From Escherichia coli (GTDB lineage Bacteria; Pseudomonadota; Gammaproteobacteria; Enterobacterales; Enterobacteriaceae): 64,000 bases of DNA. Shown piece by piece: positions 28,653 to 56,036 of the stretch (positions within the stretch are counted from its first letter, which is position 1; every line of letters starts with the position of its first letter). The notes beneath the pieces are model-generated. The model made no database searches. It was not told the origin of the DNA and saw only the letters and a program-made list of their open reading frames with translations. The stretch lies in NCBI RefSeq assembly GCF_003334765.1, contig NZ_QOWT01000008.1; one strand, written 5' to 3'. The position numbers were made by a program, and so were the translations under genes.

Positions 28653-29273
28653 GTGGAAATTTACGAGAACGAAAACGACCAGGTAGAAGCGGTTAAACGC
28701 TTTTTTGCTGAAAATGGCAAAGCACTGGCTGTTGGGGTGATTTTGGGCGTTGGCGCACTGATTGGCTGGCGCTACTGGAACAGCCATCAGGTTGATTCTG
28801 CACGCTCCGCTTCTCTTGCCTATCAAAATGCGGTTACCGCAGTGAGCGAAGGCAAACCGGATAGCATCCCGGCGGCGGAAAAATTTGCTGCTGAAAATAA
28901 AAATACTTATGGTGCGCTGGCTTCTTTGGAACTTGCGCAGCAATTTGTTGACAAAAATGAACTAGAGAAAGCTGCCGCCCAGTTACAACAGGGGCTGGCA
29001 GACACGAGCGATGAAAATCTCAAAGCCGTGATAAATCTGCGTCTTGCTCGCGTTCAGGTACAGCTCAAGCAGGCTGATGCCGCGCTGAAAACCCTTGATA
29101 CCATCAAAGGTGAAGGGTGGGCTGCCATTGTTGCCGACCTGCGTGGTGAAGCATTGCTGAGCAAAGGTGATAAGCAAGGTGCGCGTAGTGCATGGGAAGC
29201 AGGCGTGAAAAGCGATGTTACTCCGGCACTGAGCGAAATGATGCAGATGAAAATTAATAATTTGTCCATCTGA
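28653..29273 (+). CDS. yfgM: membrane-anchored TPR-like protein YfgM
   Basis: 206-aa ORF, GTG start, N-terminal TM segment. Confidence 0.85.
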   Translation: MEIYENENDQVEAVKRFFAENGKALAVGVILGVGALIGWRYWNSHQVDSARSASLAYQNAVTAVSEGKPDSIPAAEKFAAENKNTYGALASLELAQQFVDKNELEKAAAQLQQGLADTSDENLKAVINLRLARVQVQLKQADAALKTLDTIKGEGWAAIVADLRGEALLSKGDKQGARSAWEAGVKSDVTPALSEMMQMKINNLSI

Positions 29274-29283
29274 GAGGGACCCG

Positions 29284-30462
29284 ATGCAATTGCGTAAATT
29301 ACTGCTGCCAGGACTGCTTTCCGTTACCCTTTTAAGCGGCTGTTCGCTGTTTAACAGCGAAGAAGATGTGGTAAAGATGTCCCCATTGCCAACCGTTGAA
29401 AACCAGTTTACGCCGACCACGGCGTGGAGCACTTCCGTTGGTAGCGGCATTGGCAACTTCTATTCCAATCTTCATCCGGCACTGGCGGACAACGTTGTCT
29501 ATGCAGCGGACCGCGCTGGTTTAGTAAAAGCGCTGAATGCGGATGATGGCAAAGAAATCTGGTCTGTCAGCCTGGCCGAGAAAGATGGCTGGTTCTCTAA
29601 AGAGCCTGCATTACTTTCTGGCGGTGTGACCGTGTCTGGTGGGCATGTCTACATTGGCAGCGAAAAGGCGCAGGTTTACGCGCTGAATACCAGCGATGGT
29701 ACTGTGGCATGGCAAACTAAAGTCGCGGGTGAAGCACTTTCGCGCCCGGTGGTCAGCGACGGTCTGGTGTTAATCCACACCAGTAACGGTCAGTTACAAG
29801 CGCTGAACGAAGCTGACGGCGCTGTCAAATGGACAGTTAACCTCGATATGCCTTCGCTCTCTTTGCGTGGCGAGTCTGCGCCGGCAACGGCTTTTGGTGC
29901 GGCCGTCGTGGGGGGCGATAATGGTCGCGTCAGCGCAGTGCTGATGGAACAGGGCCAGATGATTTGGCAGCAGCGTATTTCCCAGGCGACCGGTTCTACC
30001 GAAATTGACCGTCTGAGCGATGTTGACACGACTCCCGTCGTTGTTAACGGCGTTGTTTTCGCGCTGGCCTATAATGGTAACCTGACGGCGCTTGATCTGC
30101 GCAGTGGTCAGATTATGTGGAAACGCGAACTGGGTTCGGTGAATGATTTCATCGTCGACGGCAATCGCATCTATCTGGTCGATCAAAATGACCGGGTGAT
30201 GGCGTTGACCATTGATGGCGGCGTTACGCTGTGGACACAAAGCGATCTGCTGCATCGCCTGCTGACTTCTCCGGTGCTGTATAATGGCAACCTGGTGGTC
30301 GGTGACAGTGAAGGTTATCTGCACTGGATTAACGTCGAAGATGGTCGTTTCGTTGCCCAGCAAAAAGTTGATAGTTCCGGTTTCCAGACTGAACCGGTTG
30401 CCGCTGACGGCAAACTGCTGATCCAGGCAAAAGACGGAACCGTGTACTCTATTACACGTTAA
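29284..30462 (+). CDS. bamB: outer membrane protein assembly factor BamB (PQQ beta-propeller lipoprotein)
   Basis: 392-aa ORF with lipoprotein signal (LLSGCSLF). Confidence 0.9.
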   Translation: MQLRKLLLPGLLSVTLLSGCSLFNSEEDVVKMSPLPTVENQFTPTTAWSTSVGSGIGNFYSNLHPALADNVVYAADRAGLVKALNADDGKEIWSVSLAEKDGWFSKEPALLSGGVTVSGGHVYIGSEKAQVYALNTSDGTVAWQTKVAGEALSRPVVSDGLVLIHTSNGQLQALNEADGAVKWTVNLDMPSLSLRGESAPATAFGAAVVGGDNGRVSAVLMEQGQMIWQQRISQATGSTEIDRLSDVDTTPVVVNGVVFALAYNGNLTALDLRSGQIMWKRELGSVNDFIVDGNRIYLVDQNDRVMALTIDGGVTLWTQSDLLHRLLTSPVLYNGNLVVGDSEGYLHWINVEDGRFVAQQKVDSSGFQTEPVAADGKLLIQAKDGTVYSITR

Positions 30463-49998: not shown

Positions 49999-50358
49999 TT
50001 AACCCACGATTTCCAGTACCTGCTCCGGTGGACGACCAATCCGCGCTTTGCCATTCGCGACCACAATCGGGCGCTCCATCAGCTTCGGATTATCCACCAT
50101 TGCCTGAATCAGCGCCTCTTCGCTAAGCGAACTGTCAGCCAGGTTCAGTTCTTTATAAAGATCCTCTTTCTGGCGCATCAATTCACGGGCGCTATTCATC
50201 CCCAGTATTTTCAGCAAATCGCGCAGCGTTGCCGCATCGGCGGGTGTCTCAAGGTAGAGCACCACTTCTGGCTCCACGCCGTTTTCTTTCAGCAGGTTCA
50301 GCGTTTCCCGGCTCTTTGAACAGCGTGGGTTATGGTAGATTTTTACCTGTTTGGTCAT
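49999..50358 (-). CDS. yfgD: ArsC-family reductase-like protein YfgD
   Basis: 119-aa ORF with N-terminal Cys motif (YHNPRCSKSR). Confidence 0.8.
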   Translation of the reverse strand: MTKQVKIYHNPRCSKSRETLNLLKENGVEPEVVLYLETPADAATLRDLLKILGMNSARELMRQKEDLYKELNLADSSLSEEALIQAMVDNPKLMERPIVVANGKARIGRPPEQVLEIVG

Positions 50359-50378: not shown

Positions 50379-51842
50379 TTACATCTTGGTATAAGGCTTA
50401 AAGCGTTCCTGCAGCTGGCGCAACTGGTCGATGCGCGCATCGTAACGCGCTTGTTGCAGGCTGCCTAATTTCACCTGCGAACTGGCGCTACTCAACAGCG
50501 AAATGGCCTGATCGAGTCGTCCGGCGAGCGCATAACCTTCTGCTCGCGCAGCCAGCTCCTGATCGCGGTTATTTAGCGCGGCTTCCGCCTGTGCCAGCAA
50601 ATCCCAGCCGTTGCTGTCATCTTTATTATTAAAGGTGTAGCGATTCAGAATATTGGCCGCTTCTTGTGGTTGACCGCCTTGCAAATAAGCGTTCGCCAGG
50701 TTGAGCTGCAACACCGGATTGGTGCGTAAATCGCGGGCATTTTTCAGACGATTGATCGCCTCATTGGCTTTGTTTTGCCCAAGATCGATATCAGTAGCCA
50801 GATCGAGATACCATGCGTTGCCAGGTTCTGCCGCCAGTAACGGTTGCAGCGTTTTACGCGCCTCGTCGTATTTATTGGCTTCCATCGCCTGTAAAGCACG
50901 ACCATATTGTGCTGCTCGTTGCTGACGAACGTTTCCTTTCGCCCATTCATCCAGCAAATCACTGGTGAGCTGGTTACGTCCGGAATTATACATCCCCAGT
51001 GTGCGCGCTTTCGCCAGATAGAAATCTTCCGACGACTGCACCACCATCGGGCGCATCTGATTAGCACGGTTGCGGGCATCTGCCAGACGACTTTCCGGCA
51101 ACGGGTGAGTCAATAAAATTTCCGGCGGGCGCGAGGAGTAACGCGCCTGATCGAGTAATTTTTCGAGGAAGGTTGGCATCGCCTGCGGATCGAATCCCGA
51201 GCGTTGCAGCACCTGAATACCAATGCGGTCCGCTTCCTGTTCATTTTGCTGGGTGAAACTGATCATCCCCTGACGCGTTCCCGCCAGTGTACCGGTCAGC
51301 GCCGCCATCCCCGCCTGCGGACTGGCCATCGCCAGTAAAATAGAACCTAACGCGCCGACCCAGGTCAGCGGCGCGCTGCGCTGCTGATCTTCCATCGCTC
51401 GCGCCAGGTGACGTTGGGTGACGTGGGAGATTTCGTGCGCCATAACTGAAGCCAGTTGACTTTCGTTATCGGAATAACGGAACAGGGCAGAGTGCAGCAC
51501 CACGTTGCCGCCAAAGAAAGCAAAGGCGTTAATTTCGTCGTTGTTGATCAGAAAAAAATGAAACGGTGTCTTAACCGAATTGGCATGCGAAACCAGACGC
51601 ATCCCCAGCGAATTAATATATTGCGTTAACAGCGGGTCATTAATTAACGGCGCGCTGCCGCGTAGCTGGCGGACATAATAGTCGCCCATCTGCATTTCCT
51701 GACCAATGGAAAGCGTGCTTCCTGCGGAGGTTCCCATATCCGGCAAGGTGTCTGCGCTGTCGGCAAACGCCGGGGCTACCTGACCAATGGTCATAGCAGC
51801 AATGAGGGTTGCAACCAGGTTTTTTTTCAACTGCCTGAACAT
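50379..51842 (-). CDS. bepA: periplasmic beta-barrel assembly-enhancing protease BepA (M48 metalloprotease with TPR)
   Basis: 487-aa ORF, signal peptide, HEISH zinc motif. Confidence 0.9.
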
Positions 51843-51865
51843 AACCTCTATCCTGTATTTCTGGA

Positions 51866-51905
51866 GATAGTCATTTGACCGATACTGTGAAATATCGTTC
51901 CCACC
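51866..51905 (-). promoter_or_regulatory. putative sigmaE promoter for bepA
   Basis: minus-strand GGAACga - 16 nt - TCAAA ending ~25 nt upstream of bepA ATG; matches GGAACTT-N16-TCAAA. Confidence 0.4.
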
Positions 51906-52054
51906 GCGCCGCCTTTGAGTGTAACGGCGAAGATTAGCCCACTCAAATGACTTTTCAGTTTCCTGAATCCGTCATAAAAAGCGAAGTCTTTTTTGTGACA
52001 TTTCGATACAATTGCGGATCGCAATCCCGCTCTTGAGGTTCAGGGAAGGTCTTT

Positions 52055-53116
52055 ATGCTCGAAATGTTGATGCAATGGTATCGCCGCCGTTTTAGCGACC
52101 CGGAAGCGATTGCCTTGCTGGTTATTTTAGTTGCCGGATTTGGCATTATCTTTTTCTTTAGTGGCCTGCTTGCTCCGTTGCTGGTGGCTATTGTGCTGGC
52201 CTATTTGCTGGAATGGCCAACCGTGCGTCTGCAATCTATTGGCTGCTCCCGCCGCTGGGCGACGTCGATTGTATTGGTGGTTTTCGTCGGTATATTGCTA
52301 CTGATGGCGTTCGTGGTACTGCCTATCGCCTGGCAACAGGGCATCTACTTAATCCGCGATATGCCGGGGATGCTCAATAAGCTTTCTGACTTTGCCGCCA
52401 CGTTGCCGCGCCGCTATCCGGCGTTAATGGACGCGGGCATTATTGATGCAATGGCCGAAAATATGCGCAGTCGGATGCTGACCATGGGCGATTCGGTGGT
52501 GAAAATTTCCCTCGCCTCGCTGGTCGGTTTGCTGACCATAGCCGTCTATCTGGTGCTGGTGCCATTGATGGTCTTCTTCCTGCTGAAAGACAAAGAGCAG
52601 ATGCTGAACGCCGTTCGCCGGGTGCTGCCGCGTAACCGTGGGCTGGCAGGACAGGTGTGGAAGGAGATGAATCAACAAATCACCAACTATATCCGCGGCA
52701 AAGTGCTGGAGATGATCGTGGTGGGGATCGCCACCTGGCTGGGGTTCTTGCTCTTCGGGCTGAACTATTCGCTGCTGCTGGCAGTGCTGGTCGGCTTCTC
52801 GGTTCTTATTCCGTACATTGGCGCATTTGTGGTGACCATTCCGGTGGTTGGCGTGGCGCTATTCCAGTTTGGCGCAGGTACTGAATTCTGGAGCTGCTTC
52901 GCGGTGTATCTGATTATTCAGGCGCTGGACGGCAACCTGTTAGTGCCGGTGTTGTTCTCCGAAGCGGTTAACCTGCATCCGCTGGTGATTATTTTATCGG
53001 TGGTGATCTTCGGTGGTTTGTGGGGATTCTGGGGCGTATTCTTCGCCATTCCGTTGGCGACGCTGATCAAAGCCGTGATTCATGCCTGGCCCGATGGGCA
53101 AATCGCGCAAGAATAA
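52055..53116 (+). CDS. perM: AI-2E family permease PerM
   Basis: 353-aa multi-TM ORF divergent from bepA. Confidence 0.85.
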   Translation: MLEMLMQWYRRRFSDPEAIALLVILVAGFGIIFFFSGLLAPLLVAIVLAYLLEWPTVRLQSIGCSRRWATSIVLVVFVGILLLMAFVVLPIAWQQGIYLIRDMPGMLNKLSDFAATLPRRYPALMDAGIIDAMAENMRSRMLTMGDSVVKISLASLVGLLTIAVYLVLVPLMVFFLLKDKEQMLNAVRRVLPRNRGLAGQVWKEMNQQITNYIRGKVLEMIVVGIATWLGFLLFGLNYSLLLAVLVGFSVLIPYIGAFVVTIPVVGVALFQFGAGTEFWSCFAVYLIIQALDGNLLVPVLFSEAVNLHPLVIILSVVIFGGLWGFWGVFFAIPLATLIKAVIHAWPDGQIAQE

Positions 53117-54023: not shown

Positions 54024-56036
54024 TTACAACACCTCGCGAACCGAGATCCCCAGCCGCTGCATTCGTGACAGCAGCGTGGTGCGCTTCATCCCTAATCGCG
54101 TCGCTGCGCCACGGGGCCCGGCAACAATGCCATTGGTTTCTCGCAATACCTGAACAATGCGCTGACGTTCTTCTTCGTCATTCTCTGGCGTCGTCGGGTG
54201 CAGTAACTGCGCCATTGAACTGCGAAGCGCTGAATCTTCATTTAGCGTCGGCAGTAAACGGCTTTGTCGGACATTTAGATGTAAATTCAGACTGTTACCA
54301 CGAGTCAACAGTACCGCCCGCTCAATCACGTTTTCCAGCTCGCGCACGTTGCCCGGCCAATCCCACGACATCAACTGGCGTAGTGCCTCGGTCGGGATGG
54401 CGTCAATTGCGCGATTCATATGGCGCGCCATTTTTTGCGTGAAATGTTTTGCTAAAAGAGGGATATCTTCCGGACGGTCGCGTAGCGGCGGCAATTCCAG
54501 TGGGAAGACATTCAGGCGATAAAAGAGATCGCTGCGAAACTGGCGATCTTCAACCATTTGCCACAAATCACGGTTGGTGGCGGCAATGACTCTGACATTC
54601 ACCGGGATCGTTCTACTCCCGCCGAGACGCTCAATCTCCCGCTCCTGCAATACGCGCAGCAGTTTAGGCTGAAGTTCTAACGGCAGATCGCCAATTTCAT
54701 CGAGAAACAACGTGCCGCCATCGGCAATTTCAAAACGACCACGATGGGTATTAATCGCACCAGTAAACGCCCCTTTGTCATGACCGAATAACTCACTTTC
54801 CAGAAGACTGGCGGGGATGGCAGCGCAGTTGATTTTGACCAGCGGCTTGTCGCGTCGCGGGCTAAGTTGATGGATCGCTCTGGCGATCACCTCTTTGCCA
54901 GTTCCGGTTTCACCACAAATCAACACCGTACTGTCGCTCTTCGCCACAATATCTACCTGCTGGAGCAGGTCTTCCATTGCCTGGCTTTGATAGATAATGT
55001 CACCGATGCCCAGATTCGAAAGGAGCTGCTCGCTAAGCTGGTGGTTTTCTTGCTGCAAACTTTCCTGCAAATCGGTCATGCTACGCCAGGCATCGGCATT
55101 GCCAACGGCAATAGCGATGCGATCGGCTATGTGTTGTAGTAGCTGGCAGTTTTCCTCACTAAAGAGAGTGGAAGAGGTATGCGCCAGCAACAATGCACCC
55201 GGTGTATGGTTGCCAAAGGTAAGCGGTATAAGGAGCGCAGATTCGCAGCCGTTAGATGCAAGTAAGAGTAATAACGGGTCGCGTTGCCAGAGAAACAGAT
55301 CATCTGCACGGTGCGTCAAGGTCGGTTGTCGGGTTTGTAGCGTTTGTGTCAGCAATACACTTTCGCCAGGCATACAGCGTGGCAGACACGCACAATGTGA
55401 GGCAGAAAGATCGCTGCACCACAGGCTGAACTTCTCGTTCTTTCGATGATCGCCCAGTACCATACTGACTGAAGCCAGACCGAAAAAATGATGGATCTCA
55501 CGAGCGACGTCAGCGATCAGATCGTCGAGATCAAGATGTGACAGCACTGCATTAGTAATATCAACCAGTACCCGATGATGATCGCGATCTTTCTCCAGCA
55601 AACGCAGCGCCACCTGCTGTTCTTCATCATTGAGCCATGATTGCAGAACCGGGGTGATTATCCGCGCCAGCCAGTTAAACAGTGTGCAATCCTGGGAAGT
55701 AAAACGACTGCCGTGGGTGCGAATAAAGCGTAGCTCCGCCATTCCACTACTGCCGAGAAGGACGGCGTGACGCGAATAATCGACCATCTCGCCCTGATAC
55801 TCTGTTGTTGCCGTCACATCGCTGCCATCATCATGGTAGCGGTAATAGAAGTTGCTTTTGAGAACATGCAGTTCAATAAGTTGTACCGGGCTGAACGGCG
55901 GCGGCAGCGGGATGAAGGCGCGTAATAAAGACGCCTTGCCGTGTTTCTGTGCTAACCGCTCCGCGAGCATTCCGTTTACCGCTTCAATTGTTATTCCTTG
56001 TGGCGGGGCAAACATCGCCTCGTCTGACATAGCCAT
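54024..56036 (-). CDS. hyfR: sigma54-dependent transcriptional activator HyfR
   Basis: ORF track 54024..56039; start at [12 protein letters not shown] (670 aa); GAFTGA motif and C-terminal HTH. Confidence 0.9.

Follow-up and report, generated by a model that had tools for sequence, protein, structure and literature searches.

The rpoH gene is served by sigma70 promoters plus the sigmaE-dependent P3. For the sigmaE promoters themselves, the class against which we tested the present site was that of E. coli sigmaE (RpoE/sigma24, ECF group IV) as modelled by Rhodius et al. (2006, PMC1312014). The excerpted text of that study gives a -35 motif GGAACTTTT with the consensus GGAACTT(TT), a -10 motif (T/C)GGTCAAAA, a spacer of 15-19 nt with a strong preference for 16, and a 5/6-nt discriminator with an A/G start, the distance from -35 to +1 being 25-28 nt. 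An A/T-rich UP region is usual for these promoters and strengthens them, and is not obligatory according to the same text.

SigmaE-dependence of bepA, also named yfgC, is on record. Upon overexpression of rpoE, yfgC rose 2.4-fold and yfgD 1.5-fold in Table 2 of Bury-Moné et al. (2009, PMC2731931), where both genes are marked as earlier reported by Rhodius et al. The name 'yfgC' is absent from the excerpted main text of the latter paper (PMC1312014), with its Table 1 outside this search. In excerpted text, Lacoux et al. (2020, PMC7075262) refer, from tagRNA-seq, to the 'sigmaE-dependent bicistronic operon bepA-yfgD', and further papers call yfgC/BepA sigmaE-regulated ('yfgC, a gene regulated by sigmaE'; BepA in the sigmaE regulon). 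A literal search of full texts for the promoter sequence gave 0 matches.

Here, we compare with these systems a motif upstream of bepA in the window, that is, the whole 64-kb stretch of E. coli DNA that was analysed. In E. coli K-12 the bepA-yfgD operon has a catalogued sigma24 promoter, listed under yfgC, and the motif is very probably this sigmaE (RpoE, sigma24) promoter. The 501 bases around it are 100% identical to E. coli K-12 MG1655, over annotated yfgO and bepA, and the same 501 bases were found in 5426 of 5426 complete E. coli genomes.

The motif upstream of bepA and the sigmaE promoter model

According to the RefSeq annotation, bepA (yfgC, b2494) is a minus-strand gene (50379..51842, ATG at 51842) and encodes the beta-barrel assembly-enhancing protease of 487 aa; the product scored 742.6 bits against the NCBIfam equivalog NF052400 M48_BAM_BepA, for which the cut-off is 570. 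The second gene of the transcription unit, the ArsC-family yfgD (b2495; 49999..50358, minus; annotation and TIGR00014), follows after a gap of 20 nt, and a scan of this gap for a terminator-like site found none. On the other side, yfgO (52055..53116, plus) is divergent from bepA, leaving an intergenic region of 212 bp. A window position w converts to NC_000913.3 as 2616094 + (51842 - w), and NC_000913.2 equals NC_000913.3 - 1978 at the bepA locus; the yfgC start at 2614116 (NC_000913.2) is window 51842.

Upstream of bepA the minus strand reads ...ggcgcggtgGGAACGAtatttcacagtatcggTCAAAtgactAtctccagaaatacaggatagaggttATG. An earlier note on this DNA had reported GGAACGA-N16-TCAAA on the minus strand within 51866..51905, and the motif is indeed present there, at 51901..51874, with strand and coordinates right. 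The note had also let the motif end ~25 nt before the bepA start codon, and this figure needs correction: the -10 ends 31 nt from the ATG, and it is the predicted start, A 51868, that is 26 nt away.

The -35 element GGAACGA (51895..51901, minus) agrees with GGAACTT at 5/7 positions and has the complete invariant core GGAAC (51901..51897). The spacer tatttcacagtatcgg (51879..51894, minus) is exactly 16 nt in E. coli, and its last three bases, CGG, are part of the extended -10, CGGTCAAA (51874..51881, minus), with the core TCAAA at 51878..51874. Read as CGGTCAAAT over 51881..51873, the extended -10 agrees with (T/C)GGTCAAAA at 8/9 positions. The 5-nt discriminator TGACT is then followed by A 51868, an arrangement that suits the model at sequence level, and the distance from -35 to this predicted +1 is 26 by the counting of Rhodius et al. 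The promoter has the sequence GGAACGATATTTCACAGTATCGGTCAAA with its predicted +1 (minus) at NC_000913.3 2616068, or NC_000913.2 2614090, and a 26-nt leader. The remainder of the leader (51843..51867, minus) holds a conserved ribosome-binding region, ACAGGAtAGAGGTT, which adjoins the ATG.

An A/T-rich UP element was not found at the bepA sigmaE promoter: 11/30 bases (37%) are A/T in 51931..51902, and the segment proximal to GGAAC on its upstream side is GGCGGCGCGGTG. Since the -35 matches no further than GGAAC and the 30-nt stretch upstream is G+C-rich, without an UP element, the promoter is probably weak to moderate.

GGAAC-N18-TCAAA has one match on both strands of the 64-kb window, and this is the bepA site. 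Dinucleotide shuffles of the window gave a mean of 0.12 matches, with at least one match in 11 of 100 shuffles; occurrence of the bare motif by chance is only mildly unlikely. A looser consensus scan of the window gave two further matches of at least 10/12, each within coding sequence, namely ACAACTT-N16-TCAAA (55857..55884, minus) inside hyfR and GGAACTG-N16-TCGAA (42348..42375, minus) inside a 526-aa ORF at 41280..42860. These two are most likely chance matches, and among the window's matches of at least 10/12 the bepA site alone is intergenic and correctly placed. Neither the exact pattern nor the looser consensus scan found a second sigmaE-like site in the 212-bp intergenic region. A stringent sigma70 scan of 51700..52200 at a threshold of at least 9/12 found no site, so none overlapping the sigmaE motif, and an Rfam scan of 51500..52300 matched no family.

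Conservation across the Enterobacteriaceae

The decisive support beyond chance is the comparative evidence across species. With one genome per species, we scanned 80 Enterobacteriaceae bepA loci with protein identities of 84-99%, from genera including Escherichia, Citrobacter, Enterobacter, Klebsiella, Raoultella, Kluyvera, Buttiauxella, Cedecea, Kosakonia, Trabulsiella and Franconibacter. In the BepA homologue search all of the 120 matches listed were at least 86% identical, and the footprint refers to Enterobacteriaceae only. With the upstream regions aligned on the ATG, almost every one showed the motif on visual inspection. GAAC-N18-TC[AG]AA was found within 90 nt of the ATG in 73/81 species, always with N=18 (73/73), which corresponds to the 16-nt spacer; the background of this relaxed pattern elsewhere in the same loci was 0.0024 per 90 nt. 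Salmonella enterica, retrieved separately, has GGAACGA-N16-TCAAA upstream of bepA. The earlier note's reading of the motif as a sigmaE-type promoter is supported.

To avoid circularity, conservation was measured in an unanchored MAFFT alignment of 78 unique segments spanning -110..+12. In this alignment (n=78), GAAC was 96-100% conserved and the GGTCAAA columns 87-100%, and the predicted +1 A (-26) was 92% conserved next to discriminator columns of 23-46%. Spacer columns were mostly 24-73% identical, the 5' part of the spacer varying at fixed length, and the leader was mostly 91-100% conserved at -14..-1 and variable nearer the start site. Judged from these aligned bases, the -35 and -10 blocks are under purifying selection across Enterobacteriaceae while nearby bases drift. 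Two conserved blocks at fixed spacing, with a drifting spacer and discriminator, are the signature of selection on a bipartite sigma-factor site and exclude a chance match.

The relaxed motif was missing in 8/81 species, which comprise Kosakonia-type genomes with an altered -10 and two whose upstream region is different. In Kosakonia and relatives (L029, L034, L052, L055 and L057) the -35 GGAAC/GAAC is kept and the -10 is GGTCATA, GGTCAATA or GGTCTTTA. In the two other genomes (L041 and L056) the sequence upstream of bepA is unrelated, and no sigmaE motif is recognisable in it. In both cases sigmaE control may have weakened or been lost in particular lineages.

Within E. coli, the armadillo isolate A24 (L089; NZ_CP028751.1 3648989-3649132) has a ~190-bp deletion relative to window 51895..52090. 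The deletion lies apparently between two CGATA microrepeats and joins 5' yfgO to ...CGATAATTTCACAG; the yfgO start, the entire upstream intergenic region and the GGAAC -35 are gone, and GGTCAAA and the leader are kept. This strain is a natural bepA promoter deletion.

Start sites, the upstream element and the yfgO side

Region SigE_54 of Cho et al. (2014, PMC3923258), 2613790-2614190 (NC_000913.2), lies over the bepA/yfgO intergenic region. In that study sigma24 ChIP failed and 65 sigma24 promoter regions were taken from RegulonDB; SigE_54 is therefore the record of a catalogued promoter, not binding data, and we rejected it as sigmaE ChIP evidence. The sigma24 regions of that study are 401 bp wide, and start+300 falls 5-6 nt past a sigmaE-type -10 in SigE_4 (bamA), SigE_55 and SigE_1, which suggests that the regions run from TSS-300 to TSS+100. 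Applied to SigE_54, this rule gives 2614090 (NC_000913.2), equal to 2616068 (NC_000913.3) and window 51868, the same A as predicted from the sequence. The rule fails for the skp and lpxD entries, i.e. for 2/5 calibrators, and because the exact +1 rests on such an inferred padding rule, this placement is not watertight; we infer that transcription starts exactly at window 51868.

In the excerpted TSS table of Kim et al. (2012, PMC3415461), obtained from non-stress cultures, the sole yfgC 5' end is 2614009 (NC_000913.2), with a 107-nt leader; this -107 end is window 51949 (minus). The excerpt of this genome-wide table holds no start at 2614090 (NC_000913.2), which fits low sigmaE activity without stress. 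In addition, the sigma70 and RNAP ChIP regions of Cho et al. (2014, PMC3923258) span the bepA/yfgO intergenic region.

Between the -107 mapped start and the sigmaE -35 lies a conserved sigma70-like element, TTGAGT (51946..51941)-N17-TACACT (51923..51918), which covers 51918..51946 on the minus strand and has no mapped start of its own in the excerpted table of Kim et al. It scores 8/12 and was therefore missed by the stringent sigma70 scan. Across genera, conservation is 94-96% for the T, A, A and T of TA[C/A]ACT and 89% for the G two bases upstream, and Klebsiella and Raoultella have the hexamer as TAAACT. Relative to the sigmaE +1 the conserved block occupies -57..-49, a position given for UP subsites in the excerpted text of Rhodius et al. 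(2006, PMC1312014). From its sequence the element is a candidate housekeeping promoter, or else a candidate UP-position element of the sigmaE promoter.

The excerpted data of Kim et al. (2012, PMC3415461) also give a second yfgO 5' end at 2614095 (-) (NC_000913.2), with a 192-nt leader. In the window this end is 51863 (plus; 2616073 in NC_000913.3), an antisense start with respect to the bepA leader, and the predicted sigmaE +1 is 5 nt away. It is conceivable, and in our estimate unlikely, that transcription of bepA from the sigmaE promoter and of yfgO with its long leader are mutually exclusive by transcriptional interference, or that the TACACT block, G(C/T)TA(C/A)ACTC, would be an unrecognised regulator or alpha-CTD site tuning the sigmaE promoter and not a sigma70 -10.

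Farther upstream, a 37-nt block at 51975..52011 (bepA -133..-169; minus-strand sequence TTGTATCGAAATGTCACAAAAAAGACTTCGCTTTTTAT) shows at least 90% conservation in nearly every column across 80 Enterobacteriaceae species, far more than the remaining intergenic region. It contains the inverted repeat AAAAAG-N6-CTTTTT and immediately precedes the published yfgO start (52020, plus; -10 TACAAT) in the excerpted data of Kim et al. (2012, PMC3415461). Conservation of the whole yfgO promoter, spacer included, suggests an overlapping regulator site.

Several of these records would suit another reading of the sigmaE-type motif, in which it agrees with the consensus by chance, bepA depends on sigmaE indirectly or via another site, and upstream sigma70-type promoter(s) alone drive bepA. 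The exact GGAAC-N18-TCAAA did arise in at least one copy in 11/100 window shuffles, the excerpted E. coli TSS table of Kim et al. gives -107 and not -26, and the sigma70 and RNAP ChIP regions of Cho et al. lie over the intergenic region; moreover, Bury-Moné et al. (2009, PMC2731931) note that some induced operons have no sigmaE site and that their induction may be indirect. However, GAAC and GGTCAAA are invariant at fixed spacing in 73/81 species in which spacer and discriminator have diverged, the RegulonDB-derived coordinate coincides with the predicted +1, and the 212-bp intergenic region offers no other sigmaE-like site. We consider this reading very improbable.

It is just as hard to credit that the GAAC and GGTCAAA blocks are a transcription factor site, or part of the antisense yfgO transcript or its promoter (51863, plus): conservation by itself is silent on which protein reads the bases, and a yfgO 5' end 5 nt from the sigmaE +1, as given in the excerpted table, makes the two transcripts overlap head-on, yet conservation falls precisely on the information-rich positions of the sigmaE motif at its preferred spacing, the blocks are downstream of the antisense start and so cannot serve as its promoter, conservation of the antisense promoter region (51813..51862) is due to its being mostly bepA coding sequence and ribosome-binding site, no Rfam RNA family matched, and experiments have shown the operon to be inducible by sigmaE (Bury-Moné et al. 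2009, PMC2731931; excerpted text of Lacoux et al. 2020, PMC7075262).

Proposed regulation and comparison with known systems

In the best-supported reading, which is the standard one, envelope stress (unfolded outer-membrane proteins, LPS defects) leads DegS/RseP to cleave the anti-sigma factor RseA, and the freed sigmaE forms with core RNA polymerase a holoenzyme that would occupy the -35 GGAAC (51901..51897) and the -10 GGTCAAA (51880..51874). Transcription would begin at or beside A 51868 and give a 26-nt leader with a strong, conserved ribosome-binding site. BepA, the periplasmic M48 protease/chaperone acting on BAM substrates such as LptD, would be raised together with YfgD. The sigmaE promoter would thereby add a modest stress increment (~2.4-fold, the figure under rpoE overexpression) to basal upstream sigma70-type transcription. 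It looks like the stress-inducible proximal member of a multi-promoter region, and we infer a division of labour between sigmaE and the upstream promoter(s).

The link of bepA to the envelope stress regulon, also drawn in the earlier note, is borne out by the published sigmaE induction and by the RegulonDB-derived region placed at -300/+100 around the predicted +1. The note had further pointed to bamB in the window, and this gene is at 29284..30462 (plus). For bamB, Bury-Moné et al. (2009, PMC2731931) also reported yfgM-bamB-der as sigmaE-induced, and the excerpted text of Rhodius et al. (2006, PMC1312014) mentions yfgL/bamB as having a sigmaE promoter predicted in five organisms. In the window, GGAACTT-N16-ACAAA (7/7 + 4/5) is found at 28928..28955 (plus), inside yfgM (28653..29273) and ~330 nt upstream of the bamB ATG at 29284.

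The novelty that the note implied for the bepA sigmaE promoter does not stand, the promoter being catalogued already. Because bepA (yfgC) has been in sigmaE regulon lists since 2006 and its promoter is in RegulonDB, the promoter was already known and we report no new biology. Our modest additions are the family-wide footprint of selection on the GAAC and GGTCAAA blocks, the distance between them and the +1 A, the Kosakonia-type -10 variants, and a second conserved sigma70-like element just upstream. The case confirms that a genuine regulatory site with a coherent function can be found by inspecting nothing but the sequence; at this site the envelope-stress sigma factor turns on a protease/chaperone that clears stalled outer-membrane proteins.

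The closest known system is the E. coli K-12 yfgC sigma24 promoter listed by RegulonDB/EcoCyc after Rhodius et al. (2006, PLoS Biol 4:e2), which has the same genome, gene, intergenic position and inferred +1. On these points there was no detectable difference between the two, and they appear to be the same object. The bamA (yaeT) promoter inside rseP, GGAACTA-N16-TCGAA with a 6-nt discriminator and a G start, is like that of bepA in architecture and in the theme of outer-membrane protein assembly. Compared with the canonical GGAACTT, the bepA -35 GGAACGA has the GGAAC core only, and bepA is without an A/T-rich UP element. Induction on rpoE overexpression was also lower for bepA, 2.4-fold against 3.7-56-fold for bamA, bamD and degP (Bury-Moné et al. 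2009, PMC2731931). In its layout the bepA region resembles rpoH, with a proximal sigmaE promoter downstream of sigma70-type start(s); for bepA this likeness is based on the -107 5' end, on TTGAGT-N17-TACACT, an element without a mapped start, and on the sigma70 ChIP signal.
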